Shown: in pieces, positions 6,851 to 53,785 of the stretch | Numbering within the stretch: position 1 is the stretch's first letter | How the letters are laid out: each line of letters opens with the position of its first letter | Assembly: GCA_964635715.1 (NCBI GenBank) | Contig: CAZWNZ010000001.1 | Span: 248,122-312,121 of the forward strand | DNA from: an uncultured Gammaproteobacteria bacterium | Lineage (GTDB): Bacteria > Patescibacteriota > Microgenomatia > UBA8517 | DNA: 64,000 nucleotides | Direction: 5' to 3' | Program-made: the position numbers and the translations under genes | The notes under the pieces: model-generated | The model's input: the letters and a program-made list of their open reading frames with translations, nothing else | Databases searched by the model: none | Told to the model about the DNA's origin: nothing

Positions 6851-8293
6851 TTAGAAGCCTCCCGGCATACCACCTCCCGGCATTCCACCTCCCATATTAG
6901 AACTGCCCGAAGAAGAGCTCTTTGTGCCGGAAGTGGTTGTGTTTCCAGTGAAGAGAGAGGAGTCGTCATCTTCGGTGCTGTTGTCAACAACAATAATTGA
7001 TGTAACGACAATTTCTCCTTCATTTATTCCAGAAGTAATTACGGTATAAAAATCGTTAGATGTTCCAACTTCTACGGTTGTGGTAACGGGTTTACCATCT
7101 TTCATTATTTGAACGGTTGAGACACCGCCTGCTGTGTTTATTGCGTTTGAGGGCACCATGACAGCGTCTGCAACGGAGTTGGTAATAATCTCAACATTAA
7201 TTGCCATGTTTGGATAGATATCAACACTGGATGAGTCAAGCAGTATTGTGACAGGGTAAGAAGTAACGCTTGATGTGACACTTCCGCTGGTGTTTACTGC
7301 AAGAACTTTTCCGGTGAATGTCATATCCGAATACGCATCTATTGTAATGACCACTTTTTGATTTGCCTTAATATTTAATACGTCCGTTTCGGACATGCTT
7401 ACTGTAGCAATAAGCTGTCCATCCGGGTCGTTGATTTTGCCTACAGTCTGCGATGAGATAATAGTAGAGCCAGTAGTAGAACTGGTTGAAGAGTTTGCGG
7501 ATACGGACAATCCCTCAAACAATGCAAGATCCGAGACGGTTCCGGATGCCGGTGCGTAAATAGTTGCAGAATTTTCCTGGTAATCACGGAGAGCTGAAGT
7601 TATGCCTGCCTGCGCTTTGGCTATATCGGCAGTTGAGTTTGTGTATTTTGTCTGATTTGCCTCGAATGTTAATTTTGCGGCTTCATATTCTTTGGTCAAG
7701 ATAGCCTTTTCGTTATATGTGTATTCCGCATTTGTATCGGGATTCCAGGCTCCTGCAATCATGTTGTTGTATTCTTCTTCCGTATCGAGCCATGTTTGAC
7801 GGGAAGTCCACATATCTTTATCTGAGTTTATCTGCGCGATTTTGGCAGTGTTAACTGCTTCGACAGCGTCAAGATAACTTGCCCAAGCATCAGCTTGGCG
7901 TTTAACAGCATACTCATCAAGAGTAACCTCTGCTAATTTTTGACCTTTGGTGACAGTATCACCATTGGTTACATATACTGTTTTAACAGTACCGGAAACC
8001 TTGGTTGTAATGTTGGTGTAATTGCCTGAAGTAATAGTTCCTGATCCTGAAGTTGAAACAATAAGAGTTCCTTTTACTGCCGCCTCTGTTTCGTAGGTAG
8101 TTTTGGGTTTTTGAATTTTATCAATGAAAATCCAAATTCCGGCAGCCAACAAGACAGGAATTAAAGGGAAAATTATCTTTTTTGTCAGAGAAAGATCATG
8201 ATAATATTTCTTAATATCGACAGCTTTCTCTTTCAGAGAAGTTCGAAACAACCACTTGGCCGTTTTTTTGTTTGCCTTTTTAATAAATTGCAT
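6851..8293 (-). CDS. HlyD/MacA-family periplasmic adaptor (membrane fusion protein) with a Gly/Pro-rich C-terminal tail
   Basis: N-terminal TM, long coiled-coil region (AKIAQINSDKD...EYEAAKLTFEANQ), beta-barrel-like C-terminal half; forms an operon with the ABC ATPase and permease. Confidence 0.65.
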   Translation of the reverse strand: MQFIKKANKKTAKWLFRTSLKEKAVDIKKYYHDLSLTKKIIFPLIPVLLAAGIWIFIDKIQKPKTTYETEAAVKGTLIVSTSGSGTITSGNYTNITTKVSGTVKTVYVTNGDTVTKGQKLAEVTLDEYAVKRQADAWASYLDAVEAVNTAKIAQINSDKDMWTSRQTWLDTEEEYNNMIAGAWNPDTNAEYTYNEKAILTKEYEAAKLTFEANQTKYTNSTADIAKAQAGITSALRDYQENSATIYAPASGTVSDLALFEGLSVSANSSTSSTTGSTIISSQTVGKINDPDGQLIATVSMSETDVLNIKANQKVVITIDAYSDMTFTGKVLAVNTSGSVTSSVTSYPVTILLDSSSVDIYPNMAINVEIITNSVADAVMVPSNAINTAGGVSTVQIMKDGKPVTTTVEVGTSNDFYTVITSGINEGEIVVTSIIVVDNSTEDDDSSLFTGNTTTSGTKSSSSGSSNMGGGMPGGGMPGGF

Positions 8294-9475: not shown

Positions 9476-11278
9476 ATGAAAAAAATTTTTCCGGGGCTAA
9501 TTTCCCTTTTTCTGCTTTTAACACTTCCGGCAACAGTTTTGGCTAAAGACTATACAATAGATAAAGCAAACATTGTTGCAGAAATAACACCCGACGGATC
9601 GGCCAATATTACTGAAACGCGTACATACAATTTTTCCGGTAGTTTTTCCTGGGCGGATGAATGGATACCGAAAGAAGAATATGGAATCACGAATTATGAA
9701 TTGTGGGAGGGAACACTAAAATATAAACAAGATGACTCAGGGGCAGCAGGAACGTATTCCGTGACCGATGAGGGGGACAATGTCTATGTTAAATGGTTTT
9801 ATACCGCTACGGATGAGACAAAGACTTTTAAACTTTCTTACACAGTTAAAAATGCCGTTGTTAATCACAAAGATATCTCCGAATTCTACTGGCAATTGAT
9901 CGGTGATGGATGGGCAAAAGGGGTGGGGGAGGTAGATGCAAAAATAATTTTGCCGTATATAGCGCCTGATGACCAAATATGGGCTTTCGGACATGGGCCT
10001 CTAAACGGGACTGTAAATATAGTATCGGGAAACGAGGTGTATTTCCGTGCAACAGATTTTCCTCCCGAAACATTTTTTGAAGTGAGGGTTCTATTTCCTA
10101 CTAATACGACATTTGTCATGGCCAGAAATGGCAATGAAACTCTAAATTCGATTTTAGAAGAGGAAAAAGGCTTCATTGATAAAACTAGGGCAAAACAGGT
10201 ATGGAAATTCGTTCTGGCGTGCTTTTTTATTGCTGTAATTTTATGGAGAACTATAGTTTGGATTATAAACTGGAGTAAATATGGAAACGACGAGGAATTG
10301 CCCGAAGTGAATTTGGCCGGGACCTTGCATGAACCTCCGAGTGATCTGGCTCCGGTTTTGGTTGAAACTATGCTGAATCAGACTCCGACAGGCAAATCCA
10401 TCGTTGCTACTATTTTAGAACTGACTCGTCGCAAAATTTTGGCGATAGAATTTGTAAAAGGCGGCAAAAAGACATTTTTTGGTTCAAAAGATAAGTACTT
10501 TTTGGCCCTTAAAGACGTCAGTTATAAAAATAAAACTTCGAAAATGGAGAAAGATTTAATTGATTTTCTTTTTTCCGATTATTTGATCGGGAGCATAAAA
10601 ACTGACCTGAAAATAGATTTTGATGAAATAAAAAACAAATCTCAATCCAGCCCCACAGTTACCCGGAGTTTTTGGACCGAGTGGATAGAGGATGCTAAAA
10701 AGAATTTGAAGGATATGGATTTTTATGAAAAGAAAAGTTTAGATATGCAAACACGCGGACTTGTTGAATTGTCACTTTTGACAGTTATTAATTTTTTATA
10801 CTTTATTCTTGTGGCTTCCGCTTGGCCTTTAGGAATACTGATTATTATCATCTGTGATATTCTCCTGGTTATTTTTATAGGTTCGATGCGCAAGAAAAGC
10901 AAATGGGGAGATATGGAATTGGCCGGATGGAAGGCATTTAAAAAATGGTTGAAAGATTATTCGGTTACAAAAAATTATCCGATAGACTCCGTAATCCTTT
11001 GGGAGAAATATTTGGTTTACGGAACGGTTTTAGGAATTTCTGCTAAGGCGCTTTCACAACTTCCCGTCAACTTTTCAAAAGCGGTAGAGAAAAGCTCGGC
11101 AATATATACGGCTTTTTATCATGGAGCAGGGATGTCCGGAATGCAAAATTTTGCCTCTTCATTTTCAGCACTCTCCAACTCATTCGGTAGTTATGGCGCC
11201 TCGGGTGTTGGGAGTTCCGGAGGTTTTTCCGGCGGAGGGGGTGGAGGAGGAGGCGGGGGCGGAGGAGGAGCAGGTTAG
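9476..11278 (+). CDS. DUF2207-like membrane protein with a poly-Gly C-terminus
   Basis: Signal peptide, large N-terminal extracytoplasmic domain, 2-3 TM and a tail GGFSGGGGGGGGGGGGGAG, as in DUF2207 proteins. Confidence 0.5.
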   Translation: MKKIFPGLISLFLLLTLPATVLAKDYTIDKANIVAEITPDGSANITETRTYNFSGSFSWADEWIPKEEYGITNYELWEGTLKYKQDDSGAAGTYSVTDEGDNVYVKWFYTATDETKTFKLSYTVKNAVVNHKDISEFYWQLIGDGWAKGVGEVDAKIILPYIAPDDQIWAFGHGPLNGTVNIVSGNEVYFRATDFPPETFFEVRVLFPTNTTFVMARNGNETLNSILEEEKGFIDKTRAKQVWKFVLACFFIAVILWRTIVWIINWSKYGNDEELPEVNLAGTLHEPPSDLAPVLVETMLNQTPTGKSIVATILELTRRKILAIEFVKGGKKTFFGSKDKYFLALKDVSYKNKTSKMEKDLIDFLFSDYLIGSIKTDLKIDFDEIKNKSQSSPTVTRSFWTEWIEDAKKNLKDMDFYEKKSLDMQTRGLVELSLLTVINFLYFILVASAWPLGILIIIICDILLVIFIGSMRKKSKWGDMELAGWKAFKKWLKDYSVTKNYPIDSVILWEKYLVYGTVLGISAKALSQLPVNFSKAVEKSSAIYTAFYHGAGMSGMQNFASSFSALSNSFGSYGASGVGSSGGFSGGGGGGGGGGGGGAG

Positions 11279-17890: not shown

Positions 17891-18377
17891 TAATTAAATT
17901 TACCATTTCTATGATGATTAGTTAATTTCAGAAAAATTGAAGTGGGGCATTGACCAAAATACGATTCTAATATATAATACCCATACACTGAAGGAATAAG
18001 TTGATCCCAATTAGAAAGCTAAAGCTTCTAACGGGACAGGTTCGTCTTCAGTAATATAGAGGTTAACTTTCCGTTCGACTCCAAAGTCGCTCAGGATTAA
18101 CAACTTCATTTTTTAGTTGGTACACTTACATTTAGGCGACAGAATACAGTTTTGAATAATAGGGACCCGAATTAGTTTATTTTAAGTTAGTCCGTTAGTA
18201 TTTACGACTGTCGTTTGTTACTTAAATTATCTGCACTTTAATATCCAAAGATGACAGGTTAATACAATTTTCCAGACCTCAGTGCGAAGTCTGGAAAGAA
18301 AACGTTTTGGAATTCAAAACGTGATTGAAAGCAGGATTATCCCATTGGATGCGTAAGCTATCCAAATTGGGAACTAT

Positions 18378-19970
<1,593 letters not shown>

Positions 19971-20294: not shown

Positions 20295-20963
20295 TTATTG
20301 TTTACGAATTTTTTTGATGATCCCCGTCGCAATAAGGCAGAGGCCAACAATGCCCAGTGCCGGGAAAGGCCAAGAAATCTGTCGATCGACACCCGTGACA
20401 GGTATCAGAGCGGCAGCCGCGGTTTCAGCCGGAGGATCATATGGTTCCGGAGTTTCGGACGGCTCAACCGTTGGTTCATCGGTTGGTTCGTCGGTGGGTT
20501 CTTCAGTAGGTTCCGGAGTGCCAGTAGGTTCCTGAGTTGGGTCCTCGGTAGGCTCATCGGTTGGTTCTTGTGTTGGTTCATCAGTTGGCACTTGTTGCTG
20601 AATTGCCTCCAAGTGGCTGATGTCTTTACAATCAGAACCGCTTCCAACTTTCGTCACTGTGACAGAGTTGGTTCCAAGACCACTCACAGAATAACAGCTG
20701 TTGCTTCCGGTGAGAGTGATGCACTCATTGCCACCAGTTGACATTTCTGACCCTGCCTTTACTATGACCGAATTGATCACAAAACCTGGGTCGGCATTAA
20801 TGGTAACAGACGTTCCACCCGAATCTTCTTTGATGTAACCATCCGAACTGGGGTTTAAACAATTACCCGCCCCTTGAGCACTTACTGACGTGGTATTGAG
20901 TAAACCCGCCGTGAGACATGTGATGGCCAAAACGGCCACAAACACGAACACTATCTTTTTCAT
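20295..20963 (-). CDS. secreted surface protein with a Pro/Thr/Glu-rich linker and a sortase-type C-terminal sorting signal
   Basis: Signal peptide; (PTDEPTQE)n linker; C-terminal LIPVTG, then a hydrophobic helix, then KKIRKQ. Confidence 0.55.
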   Translation of the reverse strand: MKKIVFVFVAVLAITCLTAGLLNTTSVSAQGAGNCLNPSSDGYIKEDSGGTSVTINADPGFVINSVIVKAGSEMSTGGNECITLTGSNSCYSVSGLGTNSVTVTKVGSGSDCKDISHLEAIQQQVPTDEPTQEPTDEPTEDPTQEPTGTPEPTEEPTDEPTDEPTVEPSETPEPYDPPAETAAAALIPVTGVDRQISWPFPALGIVGLCLIATGIIKKIRKQ

Positions 20964-21625
20964 AATCTCCTCCTTTGGGGGAACTAAAATAGGTTTGTCC
21001 TTTTTTAAATCTCTTTTGTTTTAAAAGGGCTAATTAACTAACAATAAATTAAATAAATCCGCTGTGGATTTATATATTTTCTGATTGGAATTATAGACTA
21101 AGAAGTCAAATTTTACAAAATTATGGGCTATTTATTCATATACATTTCTTATATCCCAAGAAGCAATCTATCATATATTCTTTGCTCGTCCAAAGAATGT
21201 AAATCCAATTTCTTGCTTCTCCAAGAAATTGGAGAAAGAAAGAGCCCCATGATACTTTTTAGGTAGTCACTCCATTCGTTCATACAATACAAAAGAACTT
21301 CTTCGGGACAAGCCCTCGTCAAACATCTTTTGTTTCTTGATATGTATTCACTCATTTCATTCGAATCTAAAAAGTAAATGGGATTTGGTGAACAAAAGTA
21401 AATTTTATAGGCGGAATTGGAATACAAATACAAAAATCTGAAGCTAAATTTATTATGCATTAATACATCGTTAAAGCATTCAAATTTTCTTTCGGAGAGA
21501 GTTTGTGATAATATCGTTGCCTAGTGGAGAATTCCAATAAATGCATTCGGCAATTCTCTTTAACATTATTAATAAAACGATTCCGATTAAATCAAATTAA
21601 ATCCATAAAACTTAAGGAGGAAGAA

Positions 21626-21886
21626 ATGGGAATATTCGATAAAGTTACTATTGCGGGAGGCTTATGCTCGACTGGGTTTTGGGGTTTAATACCCGGAACT
21701 ACACTTCTTTTTAAACGCGGTTACGGAGCTGCGCTCGCTGCGGCCGAAGTGACGGTCGTGGAAATACTGTATGAGGAAGAGAAGTGTAAGGTGAAGATCG
21801 ATCAAATCGTAAGCCAGGGAGCGGCAACCAATTACAAAATTGGAGACGTTTTGGTTGCAACCTCTGACGAGCTCACCGCGGTGTAA
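21626..21886 (+). CDS. hypothetical small protein
   Basis: AAGGAGGAAGAA RBS directly upstream of MGIFDK; 86 aa. Confidence 0.35.
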   Translation: MGIFDKVTIAGGLCSTGFWGLIPGTTLLFKRGYGAALAAAEVTVVEILYEEEKCKVKIDQIVSQGAATNYKIGDVLVATSDELTAV

Positions 21887-21927
21887 TTTTCGATGAATTG
21901 TCAGTTTTGTAGTATTAGTTTTTTGCC

Positions 21928-21972
21928 CCCAAAAGGCCAACTTTGAAATTTAAGGTTGGCCTTTTTTCTTGG
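21928..21972. terminator. bidirectional intrinsic terminator between convergent genes
   Basis: aaaaggccaac...gttggcctttttt, with A/T runs on both sides. Confidence 0.45.
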
Positions 21973-21973
21973 C

Positions 21974-24109
21974 TCAAACCCCTTTTCTTGCCCAATGCTG
22001 TCTACTGGCTGCAATAACTTTTTCTTTATTTTGATTACTTGATATAGGCAAGGGGAGGGTGGTGGAAACAAAAGGTCTGGTAATCTGTCCGTCAATCGTC
22101 ATCTTGGTAGCAATCTGGTATTTTCCAAGATTGATCAAATCCTGTGCAGTGAAAACTTCGGCAAATTCTTTATTTAAAACGTCCGCGTCGTTTGCTCCAA
22201 CAGCAAAAGTCATAACAGTACCCGCATTTCCCAAAATTGCCCTTGTCACTTCCTCAGGAATCTGAGCCATGTATTGATTGGCAAGCATGATATCGAGTCT
22301 GTACTTTCTGGCCTCACTCATGATTTTGATAAAAGATCCTGTGGCAAAGTTTTGGAACTCGTCGACATAAAGATAAAAATCCCGCCTCTTTTCCTCATCC
22401 ATAGAAACTCTGTGCATAGCTGCAAGCTGGAATTTGGTAATAAGCATGGCGCCAAGAAGAGCCGCATTGTCCTCTCCAAGCCGACCCTGAGAAAGATTGG
22501 CAAGTAAGATTTTCCCGCCGTTCATAACATCATCCAGTTTAATTGAGCTTTTGGGCTGACCTATGACGCTTCTGATGAGAGGTGAGGCAACAAACTGCCC
22601 GACTTTATTTAAAATAGGGGAAATTGCCTCTTGTTGTAATTTCTCCGGCATTTTGTCAAACTCGTTAACCCAGAAATTTTTCAAAACTTCATCTTTAAGC
22701 TCCATTTCCACTTTGGTTCTGAAAGCTTTATTAGTTAGGATTAAAGGAACATCTTTCAGTGTTGAATTCGGAACTTGTGCAAGAGTTGAAAGGGAATTGC
22801 GAAGCACATATTCCAGTCTCGGGCCCCAGGAGAAGCCGAATATTTTATTGAAAATTGAAACAATTCCGGAAACCACAAGCTCCGCCTCTTCTTTGTTGGT
22901 TACCTCCAGGGGGTTAATTACAACGGGGTAGTTGATATCTGCGGGGTTAAAATAAATAACGTCATTAATTCTATGCTTGGGAATATAGTTTAAAATAATG
23001 TCGCAAAGATCTCCGTGAGGATCGATTATGGCCAAACCGCGATCTTTCTTAAGATCATCGATAGCCATATTGGCAATAAGAGTGGATTTACCTGTACCCG
23101 TTTTTCCGATTGCCCAAATGTGACGGCGCCTGTCAATATCTTTTATACCGAAAATTGTATCCTTGTTCTTAAATACAGTCTTGCCAAAGAAATTGACATG
23201 AGCGCGTTCTTCTTCACGGGTTGTGATTGCGTTCGGAAGGTTTTCAGGAGGTTCGGATAAAACTTTTGTGCCCCAAGCAATTCCTGTCGTTTTAATTTTT
23301 TCGGAAGGTAGATGCCATAGGGTAGCTAATTCTAATATGTTTAGGATATTGTTATCGGTTACTCGCCTTAAAAGAGTATTCTTTGAAACATTTGACGAAT
23401 TACGAATCTTGAATAATGAATTATGAATAGTGGAAAAATGGTTTGCATCTGCTCTGTTGAAAACTCCAAAAGCAGAACAAAGCTCTGTTAGGTATTTCTT
23501 CGTATTGTTTACCAGGCGAATGGATGTCTTAAAACCCGGGTAAGAAATTTTCTCAGTTATTATGTTTTTGTCCGATCTTGGCTGATAAGTTCCATCCTCA
23601 TTTTTGGTACCGCAATCGGCATAAGAAGCACCTTGCGACTGCCATTTAGTACTGATTGCCTCAAGAGCTATTTGGATCAAAACAACATCAGTTGGCTCAA
23701 CTTTTGATAGAACTGAGAGGACGGAAGAAAGAGGGTCGACATCTGTAAACTTATCATAAGTAGCAATAGGATAAAAATTTCCTTTCGAAAGCTTCAGCTC
23801 TTTAATGTCCAAGTTTGTGGCCTCCGCCAGCGGGTCTGCGACTTTTTCAATAACGACAAGTGGGTAGTTGCTTTGGATTTGAGCTTCCAAAAAAGGAACT
23901 AAAGAGGGATCACAAGTTATCAAAAATCTGATTTGTTGATTTACTGAGGCTATTTCAAGAGATAGGGATAAGGATTCTGTTCCAAGAAATTTTTGGAAAT
24001 TGGAGACGCCATTAATTTGGGTTAGAGCAGAAAGAAAAGTCTTCGCTGCTTCAGGAGTAACTTCCTGATTTCTTGGAAGCTTCAAAAAAAGTGTAGTAAG
24101 CTCGGACAT
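21974..24109 (-). CDS. VirB4/TraC-like type IV secretion ATPase (FtsK-HerA superfamily, DUF87/AAA_10-like)
   Basis: Walker A IGKTGTGKST; IIDPHGD; Walker B LYVDEFQNF followed by the ARKYRLDIMLANQ motif typical of VirB4/TraC; 711 aa, no TM. Confidence 0.65.
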   Translation of the reverse strand: MSELTTLFLKLPRNQEVTPEAAKTFLSALTQINGVSNFQKFLGTESLSLSLEIASVNQQIRFLITCDPSLVPFLEAQIQSNYPLVVIEKVADPLAEATNLDIKELKLSKGNFYPIATYDKFTDVDPLSSVLSVLSKVEPTDVVLIQIALEAISTKWQSQGASYADCGTKNEDGTYQPRSDKNIITEKISYPGFKTSIRLVNNTKKYLTELCSAFGVFNRADANHFSTIHNSLFKIRNSSNVSKNTLLRRVTDNNILNILELATLWHLPSEKIKTTGIAWGTKVLSEPPENLPNAITTREEERAHVNFFGKTVFKNKDTIFGIKDIDRRRHIWAIGKTGTGKSTLIANMAIDDLKKDRGLAIIDPHGDLCDIILNYIPKHRINDVIYFNPADINYPVVINPLEVTNKEEAELVVSGIVSIFNKIFGFSWGPRLEYVLRNSLSTLAQVPNSTLKDVPLILTNKAFRTKVEMELKDEVLKNFWVNEFDKMPEKLQQEAISPILNKVGQFVASPLIRSVIGQPKSSIKLDDVMNGGKILLANLSQGRLGEDNAALLGAMLITKFQLAAMHRVSMDEEKRRDFYLYVDEFQNFATGSFIKIMSEARKYRLDIMLANQYMAQIPEEVTRAILGNAGTVMTFAVGANDADVLNKEFAEVFTAQDLINLGKYQIATKMTIDGQITRPFVSTTLPLPISSNQNKEKVIAASRQHWARKGV

Positions 24110-24243
24110 ATTTCTATTATATATGGTTAATGGCTAATGGTTAATGGTTGATGGTTAAAGAATGATTGTGGAGCCTGTACCATAGATATCTAATTTCTAG
24201 ATACTTTTGATTGGCAAGGCTCCACAATGAGGAGGGGGAAATA

Positions 24244-24405
24244 TCTATGTTAAAAAAATAATTGCTATCACCGCAATCAGGATAACAATTGCCAATATGA
24301 TGCAAAAAACACCCGACCTTTTGAGTGATTTTATGAGGCACGCAATAAAAAAAATTGCGGCCAACGAAATTAAAACGGCGGCCGGGTTGAGTATTCTTCC
24401 TTCCA
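24244..24405 (-). CDS. small two-helix membrane protein (possible VirB2/VirB3-like), not in the ORF track
   Basis: AGGAGG RBS upstream of MEGRILNPAAVLISLAAIFF...; sits directly upstream of the VirB4-like gene. Confidence 0.3.
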
Positions 24406-24417
24406 TTTTTCCTCCTT

Positions 24418-24925
24418 TCAGCCAGTTTTGATTTGGTAGATTTTGTAACCCGAGCAGACTTTTACTAGAATATCATCCGTTTCCGGGCCGTGGGAACATG
24501 TGTCGGAAACAACAACCCAGTCAGGGTGTTTTTTGAGTTCTTCCTCATCCCTTTTTGTTATCTCGACCCTGATCTGACAGAATCTCCAGCTACAACCGCA
24601 TGTGATTTCTGACACTTTTCCAACCCACCTTTCTTTGTTTTGTTCAAAAAAAGATATGAACTTTATTATTAGTAGGACAACCCATGCACACGACATTTAG
24701 CCACATTCCATAACGGCTAATTTTATAGGTGAAGGTATTTCCCCGCCACTTCCGCAATCTCTCGTTCAACGTTTTTTCGAGGGATTCAATATTTTCTTGA
24801 CTGAGCACAACCATGTTGCCGTTCTCGTCATGAAATTTAAAAAATTTTTTATTGCCAGGATTCATTCTTGTACAGTATTTGATTGTGTCTGTACAACAAC
24901 AAGATCTGATGGGTATAGCTACCAT
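24418..24925 (-). CDS. Cys-rich hypothetical protein split into two overlapping frames (frameshift or pseudogene)
   Basis: ORFs 24644-24925 and 24418-24696 overlap by about 50 nt in different frames; strong GAGGAGGAG RBS at 24930. Confidence 0.3.
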
Positions 24926-25146
24926 TTTCTCCTCCTCTTTTAATTTTTAGGTACCTTCCAAAAAGCAAATTTTTTGAAATTGCTGCAAGTTTACTATTAT
25001 GGGGTAGGGAAGTCAAACTGGGTTAGTAGCTAGTGGTTAGTAGATAGGAGGCGGAGACAAAATTTGAAAAATGCACATAAGTAAAGAACAGTGAATTTAA
25101 CACTGTGGCTAACAAATCAACCTTATGTTAAAATATGCGTCGATGG

Positions 25147-26814: not shown

Positions 26815-27057
26815 ATGAAACACCTGTCCGACAAAGAAAAACTGGAAGCACTTTACATAAAGATAAATGAGGCTGAAACTAAATATCGGGAACGTCTGAA
26901 AAACTTCAGAGGTGTCCCGCACGAATCAGCCATGGGTGAACTTAATTTTTCCGAGCTTAAGGTTCGTGAAGATTTTGTTCGCTCTCTGAGGGAAGAGATC
27001 TCGCAATTAGAGAAAAAACTGGGACTGTCTACAAAATTGTCTCCGCATTTTCCCTAA
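26815..27057 (+). CDS. hypothetical protein encoded inside the rRNA spacer
   Basis: 80-aa ORF. Confidence 0.3.
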   Translation: MKHLSDKEKLEALYIKINEAETKYRERLKNFRGVPHESAMGELNFSELKVREDFVRSLREEISQLEKKLGLSTKLSPHFP

Positions 27058-27064
27058 TAGGTGA

Positions 27065-27137
27065 GGGCTCGAAGTTTATCTGGCTGAACACCTCATTTGC
27101 AATGAGGAGGTAGGCGGTTCGACCCCGCCCGAGTCCA
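27065..27137 (+). tRNA. tRNA-Ala (anticodon TGC) with a G3:U70 pair
   Basis: Acceptor GGGCTCG/CGAGTCC (G3-T70), D stem GTTT/GAAC, anticodon loop TTTGCAA, T arm GGCGG-TTCGACC-CCGCC. Confidence 0.8.
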
Positions 27138-27170
27138 CAAAATTTTTGAGTAGTGGAATATACCGCCACG

Positions 27171-27213: not shown

Positions 27214-27706
27214 CATTAATTCTGTTAGCGCAGAATTCTAGAACGTTAAAATTTGAAGATTTAAGGTTTTTTTAAAATGTGTAGGTAAGTGATAGGGAAT
27301 TTTAGATGAAGAAGTTTTATATTTCTTTTATCTTTTACCCTTTATCTTTTACCTATTATTAGAAGAGGAAGGTCGCGTCCCAAACTCGAATTTATTCGAG
27401 TTGTGTGGGATCGCAAGTAAACAACGCAGACAGTGAATGCCTTGCTTTTCGTCTCCGAAGAAGGACGTACATAGCCACGAAAGTCGCCGGTTAGCTGCTA
27501 CGAAGCTTTGACCCGACGGTGTCCGAATGGGGAAACCCATCCCGCTTTGCGGGATATCTTGAGGCCAAAATGTTGACGCAAGTTAATATATAACTTTAAG
27601 TATGGAAACCACCTGAACTGAAACATCTAAGTAAGGTGAGGAATATAAATCAACGAGATTCCGCCAGTAGCGGCGAGCGAAAACGGAACAGTCTAAACCA
27701 TTGTGC

Positions 27707-27835
27707 ATAGCACAAGGAATGTCACACAAATAAATACCAATAAACCAATAAATACCAATTTACAATGGAAACATTTAGAATTGGGCATTGGTGCACATTG
27801 GTACTTATTTGAAATTTGGCGTTTCCTGCGCTGTG
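27707..27835 (+). other. 23S intervening sequence 1 (5' domain)
   Basis: The 22-nt block cacaaggaatgtcacacaaata is identical to the 16S insertion; shares taccaat repeats and ggaaac...gggcattggt. Confidence 0.6.
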
Positions 27836-28029
27836 CAGGATGGGGTTGTAGGACTCTAATGTGAGATCTCTATTTTAGTAGTAGAACAGTCTGGAATGGC
27901 TGATCAAAGAAAGTGAAAATCTTGTATACAAAACTAAAATAGGCTCTAGGAGTATCCTAAGTACCACGGAACACATATTCTGTGGGAATCCGGGGGAACC
28001 ATCCTCCAAGACTAAATAAGACGAAAGAG

Positions 28030-28066
<37 letters not shown>

Positions 28067-28656
28067 CTGAGTGAGACACTCAATGAAATAGAACCTGAAA
28101 CTGTTTGCGGTCAAACCGTGAGAGCTGGTCGTAAGACTGGTGATCGCGTGCCTATTGAAGAATGAGCCGGCGAGTTTTCAGTTACTTCTTATGTCTAACT
28201 CCAATTTGGAGGGAGGCGAAGGGAAACCAAGTGTGAATAGCGCGTTTGGAGTAACTGGAAGACCCGAAACTGGGTGAGCTAACCATGAGCAGGGTGAGCT
28301 CCGATGAAAATCGGAGGGAGGCCCGAACCCGTTGTCGTTGTAATGACATGGGATGACTTGTGGTTAGGGGCAATATACTTATCGAACCCAGAGATAGCTG
28401 GTTCTCCCCGAAAGGTCTATGGGGACCGTGGTCCGTCACGTTCTGCTGGTTGTAGAGCACTGGCTGGGTTGGAGAGCGCAAGCAATTCAATCTAATCAAA
28501 CTCCGAATACTAGTGTGAGCTATCGGACTAAAAAGCCGCATCGGGCTAAGCTGATGCGACGAAAGGGAAACAACCCTTGACTCTCAGTTAAGGCCTCTAA
28601 ATTACATCTAAGTTTGAAAGGAAGTTTTCTTTCTCAGACAGCCAGGAGGTTGGCTC

Positions 28657-28694
<38 letters not shown>

Positions 28695-28771
28695 TGGTCG
28701 ATTGAGAGGATGCGCCTAAGATTTATCGAGGATAAGATGTATGCCGAAGCTAGAGATATCCGTGCCTTGCA

Positions 28772-28874
28772 CAGGAATGATTAATAAATACCAATAAACC
28801 AATAAGTATCAATCTCCAATTAAAACTGGAATTGGGAATTTGGAATTGGATTATTTGTAATTTGTCATTCCCGT
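28772..28874 (+). other. 23S intervening sequence 2 (helix-45 site)
   Basis: Inserted between ccgtgccttg and agagcgcgggtgtggtaggggagcgttcc; aataaataccaataaaccaataa is identical to IVS 1. Confidence 0.6.
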
Positions 28875-30263
28875 GCAGAGCGCGGGTGTGGTAGGGGAGC
28901 GTTCCAATTGCGGTGAAGGTGAACCGGAAGGTTTGCTGGAGCGGTTGGGAGTGAGAATGTCGGCTTGAGTAGCGTACAATACTAGTGAGAATCTAGTACG
29001 TCGAATGTCCAAGGTTTCCACTGCAAGATTCGTTCACAGTGGGTTAATCGGTTCCTAAGGCGAGGCCAAATGGCGTAGTCGATGGACAATTGGTTAAAAT
29101 TCCAATATATGTGTTAAATCGAAAGATCCCGCAAGGGATGAGCTAGGGATTGACTGAGCAGGAGTTTTGAAGCTTTTTCGTGAAGTAGAGTGCAGAAATC
29201 GAAGTAGTTCTGACTGGAAAATCCGTCAGAATGTTTAATTAAGATGGTGCAAAGTTCTCCGCGAGGAGGGCGATTTCAAACGCTTCAGCTTACAAGAAAA
29301 GATTCGTAGCGAGAGTTAACATATGCCGTACCGCAAACCAACACAGGTGGACTGGGGGAGCACCCTAAGACGATCGAGAGACAAATCCTCAAGGAACTCG
29401 GCAAAAAAACTACCCGTAACTTAGGGAAATGGGTTGTCCAGCGCAAGCTGGATTGCAACTAAAGTTTATTGGTCGACTGTTTATCAAAAACACAGGCCCG
29501 TGCAAAAGCGAAAGCTGAAGTATACGGGCTGACGCTTGTCCAGTGCCGGTAAGTTAAGAGGAGGGGTGTTCTGAACTTGTTTCAGGATGCTCTGAATTTA
29601 AGCTCCGGTGAACGGCAGCAGTAACTATAACTGTTCTAAGGTAGCGAAGTTCCTTGCCAGGTAAGTTCTGGCCCGCATGAATAGCGTAACGAGCTAATAA
29701 CTGTCTTGAGGGTTTACTCGGCGAAATAGCGATGGCTGTGAAGACGCGGCCTACTTCCACATGGACAAAAAGACCCCGTGGAGCTTTACTGCAGGTAGAT
29801 ATTGCTTTCATATTTTTTGATTGTCTAGAATAGGTGGGAGCCGCAAGGCGATCTTGTAATACCACTCGTTGAGAAATGTGAGGCTAACTCAATTCCGATG
29901 GAAACTCGGAAGAGGAACGTGTTTGCCGGGCAGTTTTACTGGGGCGGTACCCTGCCAAATTGTAACGCAGGGACGCAAAGGTTGGCTTTCTACCGATGGA
30001 AACGGTAGTTTTAAGCGTAAAGGTTTAAGCCAGCTTGACTGCGAGGGAGATGTCCCGAGCAGGTACGAAAGTAGGTCTTAGTGATCCTCCGAAGCACAAT
30101 GGGTGTGCTCGGAGCTTAATGGATAAAAGCTACCCCGGGGATAACAGAGTAGTCGCGCCCGAGCGTCCATAGCGACGGCGCGGTTCGCTACCTCGATGTC
30201 GGCTCATCACATCCTGGCGCTGAAGAAGGTGCCAAGGGTCGGTCTGTTCGCCCGTTAAAGTGA

Positions 30264-30301
<38 letters not shown>

Positions 30302-30428
30302 ACTCTATCCTGTGGAAGCGTTGGAATCTTGAGGAGAGCTGGGGACAGTACGAGAGGACCTCCCTGGAGGAATCCCTGGTGTGCCGGTTATTGCGTCAGC
30401 AGTAACGCCGGGTAGCTATATTCCTAAC

Positions 30429-30464
<36 letters not shown>

Positions 30465-30600
30465 TCCAAGATTAGGATTCCATATTAAATCCCCCGTAGA
30501 AGACGGGGTTGATCGGCAGGCACTGGAAGATCTGTAAGGGTTTAAGGTAACCTGTACGAATAGATTGATTCTTGCGATCCCACACATGTGGGGCGCGACC

Positions 30601-30718: not shown

Positions 30719-30840
30719 TGTTCTGGTGGTCAGTGCGAAGTGGCACCACCTGATCCCTTTCCGAACTCAGAAGTGAAACGCTTTAGCGCAGACGATAGTT
30801 TACGGGCAACTGTACGCGAAAATATGTCACCGCCAGAACA
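30719..30840 (+). rRNA. rrf: 5S rRNA
   Basis: gttctggtggt...ccgaactcagaagtgaaacg...cgccagaaca. Confidence 0.9.
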
Positions 30841-38335: not shown

Positions 38336-39022
38336 ATGTCTGGATACAATTTTATAAATTTGATAGAAGGCATAACTCCCCAAGAGGTTAATGTTGTTGC
38401 GGCTTCAAAAAAGGAAGATACAGAGCCCAAAAAAAAGCGTTTTTCAATAAAATTGACCAAGATGCTGGCTTTAATTGGTATTGCTATTTTGTTGATTTAT
38501 TTTGCTCCGATAGTATTTAATTTTATTAAATACAGACTTTCCAACAACGAAGTTAATAAGCTTACCGAGGCGGCTCAAAACGCCACAGAAAGAGCCTTGC
38601 CGCCTCCGGACCCAACTCTGCCCAAAACCAACCGTTTGTCCATCCCTTCAATTGGTGTGGATACGGAGATAGAGGAGTCGACCTACGACAATTACGAGAC
38701 AGCACTCAGGAAGGGGGTCTGGAGAGTATCCAATTTTGGTGAACCTGACATAACAGGGGCTCCGATTATTCTAGCTGCTCACAGGTTCGGATATCTGGCT
38801 TGGACTAATTCATACAGGCACTATAACTCTTTTTACAACCTACCAAAAGTTAAAGAGGGAGATATTGTTACCATAGCCTGGGAGCAAAGGGAGTATAGAT
38901 ACGGTGTTTATAAAACTGAGCAGGGCGAGGAAATTACCGATTACTCAGCTGATCTTATTCTTTATACATGCGAAAGCTTAAGTGGTAGTGAGAGGATTTT
39001 TGTATACGCAAAACTGATTTAG
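38336..39022 (+). CDS. sortase (cysteine transpeptidase)
   Basis: N-terminal TM; catalytic His in ILAAHRFGY; TLxTC motif LILYTCESL; RLSIPSIGVDTEIEE beta-strand signature. Confidence 0.75.
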   Translation: MSGYNFINLIEGITPQEVNVVAASKKEDTEPKKKRFSIKLTKMLALIGIAILLIYFAPIVFNFIKYRLSNNEVNKLTEAAQNATERALPPPDPTLPKTNRLSIPSIGVDTEIEESTYDNYETALRKGVWRVSNFGEPDITGAPIILAAHRFGYLAWTNSYRHYNSFYNLPKVKEGDIVTIAWEQREYRYGVYKTEQGEEITDYSADLILYTCESLSGSERIFVYAKLI

Positions 39023-39049
39023 TCCTGTAGTATTGACAAAATAATAATT

Positions 39050-39310
39050 ATGAGATACAATGCAGCCCTGATGAAAAAGTTAATAGCGATAGTACTTAGT
39101 ACTATGTACTTAGTACTTGGCGCAAACACAGTCAAAGCTGAAGACACAGTTACCGTCTGCACCCAGTATTACGGGGGCGGAGTTGTTTGTGGAGTTCACA
39201 CCCCTGTTGAAACCGGCATTGCAGACAACATTCCTCTTATAGCTTCAGGTTTTCTTGGCGCCAGCGGCGTTCTTGCATACTTGTCAAGAAAATTCAAAAA
39301 AACCGAATAA
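39050..39310 (+). CDS. small secreted sortase-substrate-like protein
   Basis: Signal peptide; C-terminal TPVETG, then a hydrophobic segment, then SRKFKKTE. Confidence 0.45.
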   Translation: MRYNAALMKKLIAIVLSTMYLVLGANTVKAEDTVTVCTQYYGGGVVCGVHTPVETGIADNIPLIASGFLGASGVLAYLSRKFKKTE

Positions 39311-39410
39311 GTAGTTAGTTAGAATCAGTCGAAGTTGGTCAAAGTTAGAGATTTGCTCTAACCAATTTCAACCAACTCCGACCAGTTTTAACTAAAAACT
39401 AAAACTAGGG
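39311..39410. repeat. palindromic copy of the MITE-like element
   Basis: gtcgaagttggtcaaagttagag and its reverse complement ctctaaccaatttcaaccaactccgac. Confidence 0.5.
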
Positions 39411-39672
39411 TTCTTTAACAAATCGAGGCAAAGCAAAGCGGAGTCCCTCTATAATTTTGGCACAAAGCGTGAACGAATAGTTCCAAAAAGCTGAGTGCGA
39501 AAATATGTGGGACAAAATTCTTTGGCAGATTATTAATCTGACGGTGAGATTCTGAAAATTAGAAGCTTAAGTTATTTTTTATTTTTCGTGTTTAGTTTTC
39601 AGACACTCACCGTTAGGTGGGTTCTCTGGCCAGAGAAATTTTATTTCAATCACACAAATAAGGAGGTGTGAG

Positions 39673-40725
39673 ATGAAAAAGACACTCTTTTTCATTTTTG
39701 TAATTCTTGTATTGGTTTCGAGTGCATCCTGCACTCAATCTGCAACCAAAACACAAGTTGCAGATATTGGTATTGACAGGGAAGCAACCGTTGTTCTAAC
39801 AGAAGTTGTTGAGGCAACGGAAGCACCCGCTACAAGTGAACCGGCAGCTGTAAATACAGAATCGGTTGTATACACCGTACCCAAGAACGCGATTCCTTTA
39901 ATAGATGGAAAGATAGGAGCTGTAAAAGGTTTCTTCTACGTTCTGAATAAGGAAGATCCGTATACCGCCGAATATCCATACCAGTCGCTCGTTATGATCA
40001 CTCTTGGCAACGGCAAGATCGAGATCGGAAAATACAGCGAAGCACTCACCGCCAGCGAAACTGAAGGCAATATTTTTGCAGATGTTTGCGCTGAGGTAGG
40101 CGGTTGCTCGGCTGTCATCTCCGGCTATACCGCTGGGCATGTTGGTATCACCGTCATTTTCGCCGGGTATGAAAACCCTGACGACTCATTGATTGGTGGT
40201 ATCAAAAATATGTTTGAACCCAGCAATTGCGGCGGATCGGGATGCAACACAATTTTTGCTCATAACATAAAAGGCAATGCATTAACCTTCGAAAAGAAGG
40301 CCAATGTCGTCGTAGCAAAATTCCTGACCCCGGCCGAATCGCCGTATGCAAGCGTCAATTTCAGATATGATGGTGTTCCTTCGGGAGCAATCGTCATACG
40401 GGATGATGCTAAAAACATCATCGGCCACGAGTATTTTCTGACCGATAAGGACGCATTCGTTTCTGTTCCTGAGGGCGGTGGCACTCTTATCTATTGCGGT
40501 GCAAAAGCCACAATTGACGATGTAAATTGCCCAGCGGGAACAGCGATGCTCTTTAAGGGCATAAAATCTGATGGTGCTACACCCTCAGATTTAAACTACA
40601 CGATTAATCTCGTGACCACTGACTCTTCAGCAATCCGGGTTGTGATGATCTACGCTGCTGAATCGTTCGAAGGTCAAATCGCCCAGTTTAAGGCGCAATA
40701 TCCTGACTGGGACTGGCCAGAGTAA
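39673..40725 (+). CDS. putative lipoprotein / secreted protein
   Basis: Signal peptide with a lipobox-like LVSSASC. Confidence 0.4.
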   Translation: MKKTLFFIFVILVLVSSASCTQSATKTQVADIGIDREATVVLTEVVEATEAPATSEPAAVNTESVVYTVPKNAIPLIDGKIGAVKGFFYVLNKEDPYTAEYPYQSLVMITLGNGKIEIGKYSEALTASETEGNIFADVCAEVGGCSAVISGYTAGHVGITVIFAGYENPDDSLIGGIKNMFEPSNCGGSGCNTIFAHNIKGNALTFEKKANVVVAKFLTPAESPYASVNFRYDGVPSGAIVIRDDAKNIIGHEYFLTDKDAFVSVPEGGGTLIYCGAKATIDDVNCPAGTAMLFKGIKSDGATPSDLNYTINLVTTDSSAIRVVMIYAAESFEGQIAQFKAQYPDWDWPE

Positions 40726-40873
40726 TAAAGTAACAAATGTTTGCCTCGATTAGGCCCTGCTTAAGCATTTTGCTTTTTCTTTCACCGTTTTGGTGTTTGA
40801 TTAAGTAATTTGTTTTTGCAGGGCCGTTCGACTTAGCGAATAATTTCACTTATTATTAATTAAGTCGAACGAA

Positions 40874-51897: not shown

Positions 51898-53745
51898 ATG
51901 CCCAAAAATACATATACAGTTAAAGAGGTTGCCAATCTTCTGGAATTTTCTACAAATACAGTTTACAAGTATCTTGATGATGGCAGTATTAAGTCGGTTC
52001 GTTTTGGGAGTGAGGGCCGATTCAGGATTCCCAGGACAGAAGTCGAACGTCTTCTTCAAGAGAGAGGGAAAACTTTACCTGAAGATTCAACCATATCAAA
52101 AAACCAAAATTTACATGGAATAAGAGGAATCCCTAGTTTATTTGATTGGTTTGTTGCATTTTTATCTATTTCGATAGGGTTTTCAATTTTTATCTTTCCT
52201 GTTCCAAGCGCTGTTCGGGTGGTCTTTGATCTAAATAAGTTTGTCATTCCGCTTCAGGTGATTTTATTGCTTGGTGGTTTTCTCATCTTGGTCTTGGATA
52301 TGTTTAGGATGCATGACAGCCGCCTACGCAAATCTATAAATTTAATTGTTGGAATTGACTACTTGGTAACAGCTCTTGTGTTTGCTTTTGCGGACAATTT
52401 TCCCTTGACCGTCGGTTATTTGGCGGTTGCATTTATTGTTATATTGTCAGTTTTTATAAAAATGGGCCAATATACAAGATTTCTGCTTTTTATAAACCTA
52501 TTGCTTGTTTTTCTGGGGATAGGAGTTTTGGGTTGGCCTGATACGTTTTTTCTTGCCGGTGTAATCGGAGTAAATTCAAAAAACTTAATAATTTTCTTTT
52601 CGATATGGTCACTTTTGATGATATTTAATGTTTACATGACATATTTTGCAATCAGAAAAAATAAACACCTTGTTTGGTTTCTTGCATTTCCAACAGCTCT
52701 AACATCTCTTTTGTATGCAACGATTAGTTTTACACAAGGGCTTTGGGCTAAGGCGATTTATTGTGTTGTTTTGTCGTCTTTTGCCGTAATTTTCCCCTTT
52801 GCTGACGAATTTGAAGCATTTACTCTGAAGTCAAAAAAAGAGGTGGCTGCCAGTTTTGCATGGCTTCTTGGTCTTTTCCTGGTCGGATCACTCATGCTTT
52901 ACTATATCTTTCGTTCATTTCAAAGTTATGGCTTCTTAGAACTGACTAATAGAGTCGATACCGCTAGTGATATTGTCACAAATTTCATGGATGGAAATAT
53001 CGCAAAGATCTCTGCATTTGCTGTCGACGAGGAGTTGATCGGTGCTATAGAAAACTATTCCGGGGACAATATCAATTTGGCAAATAATAAATTGAAACAA
53101 CTATACCAAGCGTCCAATTGGTCGATTCGAAGAGTGGTGTTAGTTGATAAGAACGGGATAATTCTCGATACATATCCTCTGAACCCATCAAGTCAGGGTG
53201 TAGATATTAGTAAACGTGACTATTTTGAAAGCGTTAAGGTAGGTGGTCAAACTTTCGTGTCGGGGATCGAGCAACCAAGCTCATCAGGACTCAGCCCTGT
53301 GGTTTTGGTTTCAGTTCCCATAATCGATTCTAGCGGAGATTTTTTGGGAGTTGTTATGGGAGATACCGATTTGGATGAACTTACAAGAAGAGTTAATCAA
53401 ATTAAATTTGGACAAAGTGGAAGTTATTTATTAGTAGATCAATTGGGTAAATATATCATTCCACCAACTAAGGATCAGATAATGGCAAAAGCCTCTGCCG
53501 GAAGTCCCGCATCGATGGTAGTTTTGGGTGAAAAAGGTACTTTGCAAGGAGAAGATTCTTTGGGAGAACTTTCTTTAATTGCCTATGTAAAAGTTAATAA
53601 ATACAGTTGGGGTATAGTGGCTCAACAACCGGTTGATGAGGCATTCAATCCATATAGCAAAACTGTCTTTATCACGTTTCTGATATATGTAACAGCAGGG
53701 GTAGGAAGTTTAATTCTTGTATTTTCGTCACAGAGAAAGCAATAA
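51898..53745 (+). CDS. fusion protein: excisionase-family HTH, then a polytopic membrane domain, then an extracytoplasmic Cache-like sensor domain and a final TM
   Basis: N-terminal VKEVANLLEFSTNTVYKYLDDGSIKSVRFGSEGRFRIPRTEVERLL (HTH_17 / excisionase-like); about 10 TM; the C-terminal ~230 aa look like dCache; last TM VFITFLIYVTAGVGSLILVF. Confidence 0.5.
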   Translation: MPKNTYTVKEVANLLEFSTNTVYKYLDDGSIKSVRFGSEGRFRIPRTEVERLLQERGKTLPEDSTISKNQNLHGIRGIPSLFDWFVAFLSISIGFSIFIFPVPSAVRVVFDLNKFVIPLQVILLLGGFLILVLDMFRMHDSRLRKSINLIVGIDYLVTALVFAFADNFPLTVGYLAVAFIVILSVFIKMGQYTRFLLFINLLLVFLGIGVLGWPDTFFLAGVIGVNSKNLIIFFSIWSLLMIFNVYMTYFAIRKNKHLVWFLAFPTALTSLLYATISFTQGLWAKAIYCVVLSSFAVIFPFADEFEAFTLKSKKEVAASFAWLLGLFLVGSLMLYYIFRSFQSYGFLELTNRVDTASDIVTNFMDGNIAKISAFAVDEELIGAIENYSGDNINLANNKLKQLYQASNWSIRRVVLVDKNGIILDTYPLNPSSQGVDISKRDYFESVKVGGQTFVSGIEQPSSSGLSPVVLVSVPIIDSSGDFLGVVMGDTDLDELTRRVNQIKFGQSGSYLLVDQLGKYIIPPTKDQIMAKASAGSPASMVVLGEKGTLQGEDSLGELSLIAYVKVNKYSWGIVAQQPVDEAFNPYSKTVFITFLIYVTAGVGSLILVFSSQRKQ

Positions 53746-53785
53746 ACCGACAAATAAATTGGAAAAACAAAAGTTAAAAAATAAA

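Follow-up and report, generated by a model that had tools for sequence, protein, structure and literature searches.

Do the protein genes that lie between the genes for 16S and 23S rRNA of a Patescibacteria chromosome act together as a small secretion machine, or are they neighbours of separate function? The locus is located in a 64-kb stretch of contig CAZWNZ010000001.1; this stretch, called the window below, is also the genome scope of the analysis. Its rRNA spacer carries a gene for a 711-aa ATPase, several small genes upstream of it and a surface protein gene downstream, which the initial annotation had combined into a minimal type IV secretion system (T4SS)-like module. Such a module did not emerge: the parts carry separate signals, the neighbours are limited to one lineage, and neither VirB2 nor VirB3 is matched. 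We lean towards the view that the locus is not one system and comprises a single-gene P-loop ATPase core, a separate small-gene unit, an independent sortase substrate and an inherited split rRNA operon. The ATPase is one more member of a catalogued, uncharacterised family; modestly new are the predicted VirB4-type fold of its DUF8128 domain, its antisense position in the split rRNA operon and an adjacent covarying hairpin. The ATPase gene and the two parts of its product are as follows (T4CP, type IV coupling protein).

21974-24109, minus strand: 711-aa soluble ATPase (ORF listing, Pfam, family alignment)
Residues 1 to ~300 of the ATPase: DUF8128, with a predicted fold like the VirB4 N-domain
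Residues ~305-711 of the ATPase: motor of the HerA/FtsK superfamily, T4CP-type by sequence profile

Architecture and motor class of the ATPase

The four motifs read in the initial annotation, GKTGTGKST (residues 335-343), DPHGD (363-367), DEFQNF (583-588) and RKYRLD (601-606), are all present, at positions that do not vary in an alignment of 40 family sequences. Because all catalytic motifs are invariant, the protein is probably an active enzyme. An all-helical insertion (~406-530) separates Walker A (335-343) from Walker B (583-584). No transmembrane segment is found in the ATPase (19-residue Kyte-Doolittle maximum 1.39, with no segment at 1.6 or above). In the closest relative fetched, locus L008, the ATPase is 95% identical, and the dN/dS of 0.04 at a dS of 1.14 between the two genomes indicates strong purifying selection. 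The constraint on this protein is of housekeeping level.

The initial annotation described a VirB4-like ATPase. The two-domain architecture lacking transmembrane segments agrees with this, whereas the motor is VirD4-like by sequence. Pfam assigns TrwB_AAD_bind (30.6 bits, cutoff 20.5), TraG-D_C (29.1 bits, cutoff 22) and DUF87 (27.2 bits, cutoff 23.2), and no VirB4-type Pfam model matches at E<=0.1. The top NCBIfam matches are VirD4-like CD1115, CedD and TraD, all well under their cutoffs; the NCBIfam model VirB4_plasma scores 14.5 bits (E 0.005), its cutoff being 590. Aligned with hhalign, the family profile matches R388 TrwB at 95.5% (E 1.5e-8, 256 columns), from Walker A via the helical insertion to Walker B, and R388 TrwK/VirB4 at 1.5%, over Walker A only. 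Among PDB sequences the same profile ranks TrwB (E 1e-4) above HerA (0.02) and DotL (0.2), and this search returned no VirB4 chain. Plasmid homologues (623 records) carry T4SS DNA-binding, T4CP, DUF87 or FtsK annotations, never VirB4, and all ten of the ten distant relatives with other architectures match T4CP models.

The features expected of a coupling protein are thus only partly present. The nucleotide-binding domain has the all-alpha insertion and matches T4CP profiles, while the N-terminal transmembrane anchor is missing, and no link to a relaxase, a relaxosome or T4SS substrates was found among the scanned window ORFs or the conserved neighbours. As for VirB4, the sequence profiles for its N-terminal and ATPase regions do not match; the predicted VirB4-fold N-domain, the RecA-like C-terminal ATPase and the absence of transmembrane segments do correspond. 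Partners resembling VirB3, VirB6 or VirB8, or TrsD, PrgI, PrgH or PrgL, are absent among the scanned window ORFs and the conserved neighbours of 93 loci. Within the HerA/FtsK superfamily the ATPase falls in the T4SS-ATPase branch, and by its sequence profiles the motor is of the coupling-protein (VirD4/TrwB) type. The initial annotation had named a HerA/FtsK or other non-T4SS assignment, together with a genome lacking other T4SS components, as the outcome that would count against it; the profile searches place the ATPase in the T4CP clade, not in HerA or FtsK proper.

The N-terminal part was assessed by structure prediction. The full-length AlphaFold model (pLDDT 79) contains a helical block at residues 406-530, and Foldseek aligned TrwK to it over the full length. 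This fold points to the T4SS-ATPase/HerA group and by itself does not discriminate within the group. Residues 1-304, modelled separately, gave a pLDDT of 87.6 and a pTM of 0.84; the list of structural matches of this model contains no further P-loop protein, so what is matched is the N-domain of VirB4 and not a RecA-like core. Homology of this domain to TrwK at the sequence level was not detectable (hhalign, single-sequence template). Its DUF8128 label is a Pfam name taken from precomputed annotations, and a literature search for DUF8128 gave no paper. As modelled, the ATPase is a VirB4-type N-domain (DUF8128) joined to a motor of T4CP type by profile, without the membrane anchor of T4CPs. In the R388 structure the VirB4 N-domain contacts VirB3 and VirB8.

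By homology, the ATPase would probably assemble into a ring (a hexamer) and work, powered by NTP, as a translocase or a docking motor. Having no membrane anchor, it would therefore need recruitment by partners, which may bring it to the membrane via the VirB4-like N-domain; there it could act on DNA, a nucleoprotein or a protein substrate.

Distribution of the family and its relation to T4SS

A word-index search gave 4,878 matches, the best 120 of which are full length at 75-100% identity, and an exhaustive search of 50%-cluster representatives gave 21,889 proteins at E<=1e-3, including 6,112 at E<=1e-30. In a scan with each GTDB species represented by a single genome, full-length homologues (35-53% identical) occur across many Patescibacteria candidate phyla, among them Microgenomates groups, Saccharibacteria, Dojkabacteria, Berkelbacteria, Peregrinibacteria, Gracilibacteria, Uhr-, Falkow- and Buchananbacteria and several Parcubacteria groups. 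The family is apparently near-universal in the phylum and vertically inherited across it.

All ORFs within 5 kb of the ATPase gene were clustered for 93 loci and the window. No neighbour is kept across lineages, no T4SS-related neighbour recurs across the 93 loci, and the window's own neighbours were not found in these loci beyond the clade with the rRNA arrangement described below. Some 20 loci of Saccharibacteria have dprA, topA and a sigma factor gene upstream of the ATPase gene. The flanks of 97 loci and of the window hold no second DUF8128/TrsD-like gene. Family searches detected no further T4SS component among the scanned window ORFs, and the initial annotation was right that relaxase and VirB6 genes are missing nearby, as far as these ORFs go. 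The families matched by the other scanned ORFs are those of housekeeping genes: MacB/FtsX, HlyD, RadA-like, Rho, S1, M23 peptidase and sortase. This distribution suggests that the role of the ATPase does not rely on a locally encoded T4SS.

A published survey gives the wider context (Quinonero-Coronel et al., 2025; PMC12102498). VirB4 was detected in 2,417 of 3,035 Patescibacteria genomes, and in Microgenomatia virB4 is usually located near dnaA/dnaN together with genes for TrsD, VirB3, VirB6, VirB8 and pilin. The survey also counted 5,713 "T4CP homologues" in 2,918 of the 3,035 genomes, 148 of them near virB4; the T4CP homologue of S. epibionticum is reported to be non-essential, and exaptation of T4CP homologues was considered possible. 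In Table S1 of the survey the entries for Roizmanbacteria GW2011_GWC1_37_12 and for Collierbacteria GW2011_GWB2_45_17 read "VirB4: No" (CONJScan virb4 profile). Both of these genomes (GCA_000991135.1, our locus L031, and GCA_001001485.1, L051) hold full-length homologues of the ATPase, 47% and 43% identical, respectively, so the family is not the survey's VirB4; most probably it is among the survey's orphan T4CPs. For GCA_000991135.1 the matches listed in Table S3 are four t4cp1, one TrsD and one VirB11.

Some relatives have other architectures. In P0169, P0206 and similar proteins a T4CP-like motor (~50% identical) is N-terminal and a treble-clef zinc finger (PF23477) C-terminal, and others carry a NUDIX domain or a second P-loop. 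Such variants probably explain the presence of several "T4CP homologues" per Patescibacteria genome.

The principal alternative, which we regard as possible but rather unlikely, is that the ATPase acts in trans as the coupling or energising ATPase of the canonical chromosomal T4SS of Patescibacteria (the virB4/trsD/virB3/virB6/virB8/pilin cluster, usually near dnaA/dnaN), docking on it through the N-domain. Both the T4CP-type motor and the VirB4-like N-domain, with its VirB3 and VirB8 contacts in R388, would suit such a role. Genes for t4cp are often far from virB4 (PMC12102498), and a review counts a VirD4-like component among the T4SS parts of Saccharibacteria (PMC12857230). However, homologues are present in genomes scored without VirB4, T4CP homologues occur in ~500 more genomes than VirB4, and in S. 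epibionticum the T4CP homologue is reported to be non-essential while the T4SS genes are essential (PMC12102498). The ATPase also has no transmembrane anchor. Components of T4SS are generally expected to be less conserved than this protein, with its dN/dS of 0.04 and identities of 75-95% in the closest relatives. The ATPase is, in our reading, probably not dependent on the canonical VirB4-based T4SS.

A bolder proposal, which we consider doubtful, is that the DUF8128 family represents a third, hitherto unrecognised class of T4SS-type ATPases, combining a VirB4 N-domain with a VirD4-type motor, kept nearly universally in Patescibacteria under constraint of housekeeping level, also where VirB4 is missing, and independent of the canonical T4SS. 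Were it true, the family might serve, for example, as the cytoplasmic motor of a route for DNA or nucleic-acid uptake or export on which these biosynthetically poor episymbionts rely, and it would be an evolutionary intermediate bearing on the divergence of VirB4 and coupling proteins.

In any case these ATPases are among the most conserved Patescibacteria proteins of unknown function, so far counted simply as a "T4CP homologue". The VirB4-type N-domain, the absence of an anchor and the presence in genomes scored without VirB4 offer a testable handle on a family that the survey called "possibly exapted", namely on the membrane partner of the N-domain and the substrate moved.

The split rRNA operon and the neighbouring genes

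Around the ATPase gene the window contains the following features.

18374-19969, plus strand: 16S rRNA gene, convergent with the minus-strand genes
20295-20963, minus strand: 222-aa surface protein (ORF listing, Pfam, hydropathy)
21090-21118, minus strand: promoter-like site TTGTAA-17-TATAAT of the surface protein gene, in a region common to L008
21253-21376, minus strand: extended hairpin of 123 nt, a candidate for a structured RNA or a palindromic element (covariance model)
21626-21886, plus strand: 86-aa ORF with a strong Shine-Dalgarno sequence, absent from L008 and without a family match
21931-21965, minus strand: terminator-like hairpin with an 11-bp stem (AAAGGCCAACC/GGUUGGCCUUU) and, after it, a short run of U (-22.6 kcal/mol, z -2.8)
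24116-24144, minus strand: promoter-like site TTAACC-17-TATAAT of the ATPase gene (consensus match)
24165-24228, minus strand: nested hairpin, outer G+C-rich stem and inner A+T stem (-29.2 kcal/mol, z -4.5)
24245-24406, minus strand: 53-aa protein with two transmembrane helices (hydropathy)
24418-24615, minus strand: 65-aa Cys-containing protein, GTG start at 24615 behind AAGGTGG (L008 alignment)
24644-24925, minus strand: 93-aa Cys-rich ORF with its own strong Shine-Dalgarno sequence, AGGAGG (ORF listing, L008 alignment)
24988-25016, minus strand: promoter-like site TTGACT-17-TAAACT of the small-ORF unit, in a region common to L008
25147-25219, plus strand: tRNA-Ile(GAT), the first spacer tRNA, 5.2 kb 3' of 16S
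27065-27138, plus strand: tRNA-Ala(TGC)
27410-30580, plus strand: 23S rRNA gene
30722-30838, plus strand: 5S rRNA
38336-39022, plus strand: sortase gene (sortase domain E 5.5e-12)

The ATPase cluster does lie in the rRNA spacer, as initially annotated, with 16S on one side and tRNA-Ile, tRNA-Ala and 23S on the other; the 16S-23S spacer is 7.4 kb long. In all related contigs of sufficient length the ATPase gene is convergent with or downstream of 16S, and wherever 23S is visible it is located between 16S and the spacer tRNAs with 23S. This placement relative to 16S is kept at ATPase identities of at least 77% (L001-L004, L006, L009, L010, L012 and L013) and also in L015, a 53% relative; it was not seen in the remaining 78 species loci. 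An SNase-like gene upstream of 16S is likewise syntenic in relatives. Since the arrangement is kept among relatives, the split rRNA operon with its antisense ATPase gene is an inherited trait of a Microgenomatia subclade. The G+C content is even across the region and like that of the surroundings, and no integrase is found among the scanned window ORFs.

Other peculiarities of this rRNA operon were also recorded. An 80-aa ORF (26815-27057, plus strand) lies on the rRNA strand in the spacer between tRNA-Ile and tRNA-Ala, ends 8 nt short of tRNA-Ala and is found at the same place, 52-71% identical, in L001-L005 and L010-L013, so that a protein gene appears to be co-directionally embedded in the operon. 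The tRNA-Ile is on the ATPase strand in L001 (2531-2602), L002 (1809-1880), L003 (9093-9164) and L004 (4907-4978), inverted relative to 16S, tRNA-Ala and 23S, and in the window and L006 it has the orientation of the rRNA genes, which implies a local inversion within the clade. The 23S match in the window spans 3,171 nt against a model of 2,925 positions, which suggests an insertion in this gene. In relatives the 23S region contains group I introns and the 16S region genes for LAGLIDADG endonucleases, with coordinates listed for L003 (3359-3625, 4418-4668) and L009 (4950-5369, 6357-6959).

The ATPase gene is flanked by its own putative transcription signals. The end of its -10 box is 6 nt from the ATG, a Shine-Dalgarno sequence is missing, and most of the clade loci read likewise have a TATAAT box at a distance of a few to ~12 nt upstream of the ATG; the mRNA may therefore be leaderless or near-leaderless. 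The nested hairpin, located between the 53-aa gene and the ATPase promoter, is nearly identical in L008 despite saturated synonymous sites. Two-tier hairpins are also present upstream of the ATPase promoter in L010 (~7883-7942), L012 (~7913-7967) and L003 (~9918-9954), with different stem sequences and the same architecture (z -2.5 to -4.75). They are preceded by a CCUCC-rich stretch, and in the window copy TAACCAT-like repeats then follow. This element is probably a terminator or insulator. Directly 3' of the ATPase stop codon lies the terminator-like hairpin with its G+C-rich stem. This hairpin, the conserved non-coding 123-nt hairpin and the opposite-strand ORF 21626-21886, which is absent from L008 and so window-specific, separate the ATPase gene from that of the surface protein. 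The ATPase gene is thus apparently monocistronic, and it, the small-ORF unit and the surface protein gene would be separate transcription units; promoter-like or terminator-like signals of its own for each part therefore argue against a module.

Upstream of the ATPase on the same strand lies the two-helix membrane protein that had been noted at the outset; its helices are strongly hydrophobic (Kyte-Doolittle maximum 3.67). It is 60-64% identical in L008 (dN/dS 0.18) and matches a 55-aa ORF in L012/L013 marginally (E 0.006). A VirB2 or VirB3 identity, to which the VirB2/B3-like position noted for it had pointed, finds no backing: no Pfam or NCBIfam model matches at E<=0.1, homologues are confined to L008 apart from the marginal L012/L013 match, and its linkage to the ATPase is not conserved. 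The Cys-containing gene had been taken for one split by a frameshift. Its L008 orthologue is intact (62 aa, ~70% identical), and the window has a 65-aa counterpart (pN 0.17 vs pS 0.84 relative to L008) and a separate 93-aa ORF ending 28 nt upstream of its start. The supposed frameshift is an artefact of mechanical ORF calling: the listed ORFs 24418-24696 and 24644-24925 (minus strand) overlap, and the 92-aa "ORF" results from extending the frame mechanically to an ATG further upstream. No homologue of the 93-aa ORF occurs in any fetched locus. At the matching L008 position it is absent, and the shared promoter/ribosome-binding region directly abuts the Cys gene, so it is an extra ORF and not the front half of a broken gene; we regard it as a window-specific gene of uncertain status. 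The substitution counts between the window and L008 indicate that the 53-aa, Cys and surface protein genes are real. Apart from the marginal match, the 53-aa and Cys genes have no counterpart beyond L008, and unrelated small ORFs occur elsewhere. The 93-aa, 65-aa and 53-aa genes would form a separate, lineage-specific transcription unit, a view that shares the modest preference given to the whole reading.

Downstream, the surface protein is present with the stalk and sorting signal initially described, but it lies 1 kb from the ATPase gene behind its own promoter-like site. It comprises a signal peptide, a ~95-aa Cys-containing globular domain, a Pro/Thr (PT)-rich stalk (PT repeat, Pfam PF04886, E 2.7e-8), an IPVTG motif, a transmembrane helix and a basic tail. 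The C-terminal sequence of IPVTG, hydrophobic helix and KKIRKQ occurs in no other ORF of the window. Homologues are found in L008 (IPVTG; dN/dS 0.17), L010 (LPLTG) and L011; other clade members have a different secreted Pro/Thr-rich protein after the ATPase, and L009 has none. Signal peptide, LPXTG-like motif, helix and basic tail in the sequence, together with a sortase gene in the window, mark it as a likely sortase substrate, and we incline, on the same balance as for the locus as a whole, to regard it as independently transcribed.

The 123-nt hairpin between the ATPase and surface protein genes lies inside a mechanical ORF (21149-21460). Over 249 nt the region shares 90% identity with L008, apart from a 1-nt indel that breaks the frame, and this similarity persists despite saturated synonymous sites between the genomes. 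Its invariant core is AACAAAAGAUGUUUGACGAGGG...CCCGAAG.AGUUCUUUUGUA. Covariance model R1 gave 13 matches at varying positions around the rRNA/ATPase region, with copies in L008 (3259-3381), L003 (507-628, 320-442), L094 (886-1008), L096 (2118-2240), L010 (11555-11677) and L006 (9773-9894). In the alignment, which was fitted to the model's structure so that the counts are biased towards it, pairing holds in 91% of cells, and compensatory changes are seen at 23 of 34 pairs, a result reached by none of 500 shuffles. No Rfam family matches at E<=1, and the likeness of the GACGAG...CGAAG core to a hammerhead is superficial. The element may be either a novel small RNA or a mobile repeat of palindromic form. 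Together with the antisense position of the ATPase in the split rRNA operon, it is a small addition to what is known of genome organisation in the candidate phyla radiation (CPR).

These data make it very unlikely that a VirB4-like ATPase, a VirB3/VirB2-like two-helix protein, a Cys-rich protein and a sortase-anchored adhesin cooperate here as a local minimal T4SS. The predicted VirB4-like fold of the N-domain speaks for such cooperation, as does the two-helix protein directly upstream on the same strand, which could anchor a VirB4-type N-domain in the way of VirB3, and a secreted Pro/Thr-rich protein, not always homologous, follows the ATPase in several clade members. Yet the two small proteins are limited to L008 (marginally L012/L013), with unrelated small ORFs elsewhere, and match no VirB2 or VirB3 model; a conserved hairpin and a promoter-like site set the ATPase apart from the small genes; the adhesin is 1 kb away behind its own promoter-like site and absent in L009; the motor is not VirB4 by sequence; and no VirB6-like channel protein is found among the scanned window ORFs. 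Largely, it is the unconserved linkage that refutes this cooperation.

A mobile or defence island in the rRNA operon, be it a HerA/mad8-like defence ATPase or an element derived from a phage or an integrative and conjugative element, is highly improbable: PADLOC (mad8 E 1.7e-15, HerA 3.5e-7) and phrog_5156 (E 1.2e-73) match the ATPase, distant homologues occur in Bacillus phages (e.g. phage G gp156) and the small upstream ORFs differ between relatives, but no MADS, SIR2, nuclease partner, integrase or relaxase is found among the scanned window ORFs, the G+C content matches the surroundings, the position relative to 16S is kept in relatives with saturated synonymous sites, and the family, present almost throughout the phylum, has apparently been inherited vertically. 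PADLOC matches none of five scanned neighbours, the phage homologues are merely 20-29% identical, and plasmid homologues reach at most 37% and are annotated as T4CP or DUF87. The defence, phage and mobile-element assignments appear to reflect generic similarity of ATPase domains.

Several points weigh against our reading of separate parts with an autonomous ATPase. The substrate, oligomeric state and membrane recruitment proposed for the ATPase are drawn from homology. The structural match of the N-domain comes from a predicted model and one PDB entry whose aligned residue ranges were not seen, and a VirB4-like N-domain could mean docking on VirB3/VirB8-like parts of a canonical T4SS encoded elsewhere. 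Which of the four t4cp1 matches listed for GCA_000991135.1 is the L031 homologue is not established, and the "VirB4: No" genomes are draft assemblies, in which absence of VirB4 is no proof. The promoter, terminator and leaderless-mRNA calls are consensus matches.

Two further groups of ORFs lie beyond the rRNA genes. At 38336-43780 (plus strand) two ORFs come after the sortase gene: one of 350 aa resembles a lipoprotein, and one of 968 aa has ~8 hydrophobic segments and matches no family; this may be a locus for surface-protein processing. A 3,189-aa ORF (53717-63286, plus strand) with one N-terminal hydrophobic segment and no NCBIfam match is preceded by the gene of a helix-turn-helix (HTH)-dCache protein (51898-53745).

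Comparison with known systems

Like the T4CPs (VirD4/TrwB/TraD/TraG; Pfam TrwB_AAD_bind, TraG-D_C and T4SS-DNA_transf), the ATPase has a motor that matches by profile and intact catalytic motifs, and proteins of its kind were counted in the published survey as "T4CP homologues" far from virB4. Unlike them, it has no N-terminal transmembrane domain, carrying a predicted 300-residue VirB4-N-like domain instead, and neither a relaxase nor a mating-pair-formation cluster is linked to it. It is also encoded on the chromosome, occurs almost throughout the phylum and is much more strongly conserved than plasmid T4CPs.

With VirB4/TrwK/TraC-TrbE the ATPase shares the two-domain organisation free of transmembrane segments. 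In contrast to them, it matches no VirB4 sequence model (hhalign with TrwK 1.5%), its gene does not adjoin those of VirB3, VirB6, VirB8 or TrsD, and its homologues are present in genomes where the survey's VirB4 profile gave nothing. Unlike HerA and FtsK/SpoIIIE, it has neither a HAS-barrel nor the gamma domain or transmembrane region of FtsK; the NurA, SIR2 or nuclease partners of HerA systems are missing as well, and the profile scores favour T4CP.

The genomic context, initially thought novel, is a variant, conserved within the lineage, of the unlinked rRNA genes known for Patescibacteria, where rRNA genes more than 1.5 kb apart are common and phylogenetically conserved (Brewer et al., bioRxiv 10.1101/705046). 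As in these unlinked or split operons, 16S and 23S in the window are separated by more than 1.5 kb (7.4 kb) with protein genes between them, and the arrangement is phylogenetically conserved. Unlike the described cases, 16S and 23S are still close and co-oriented here, and the same antisense ATPase gene is among those lying between them throughout the subclade.

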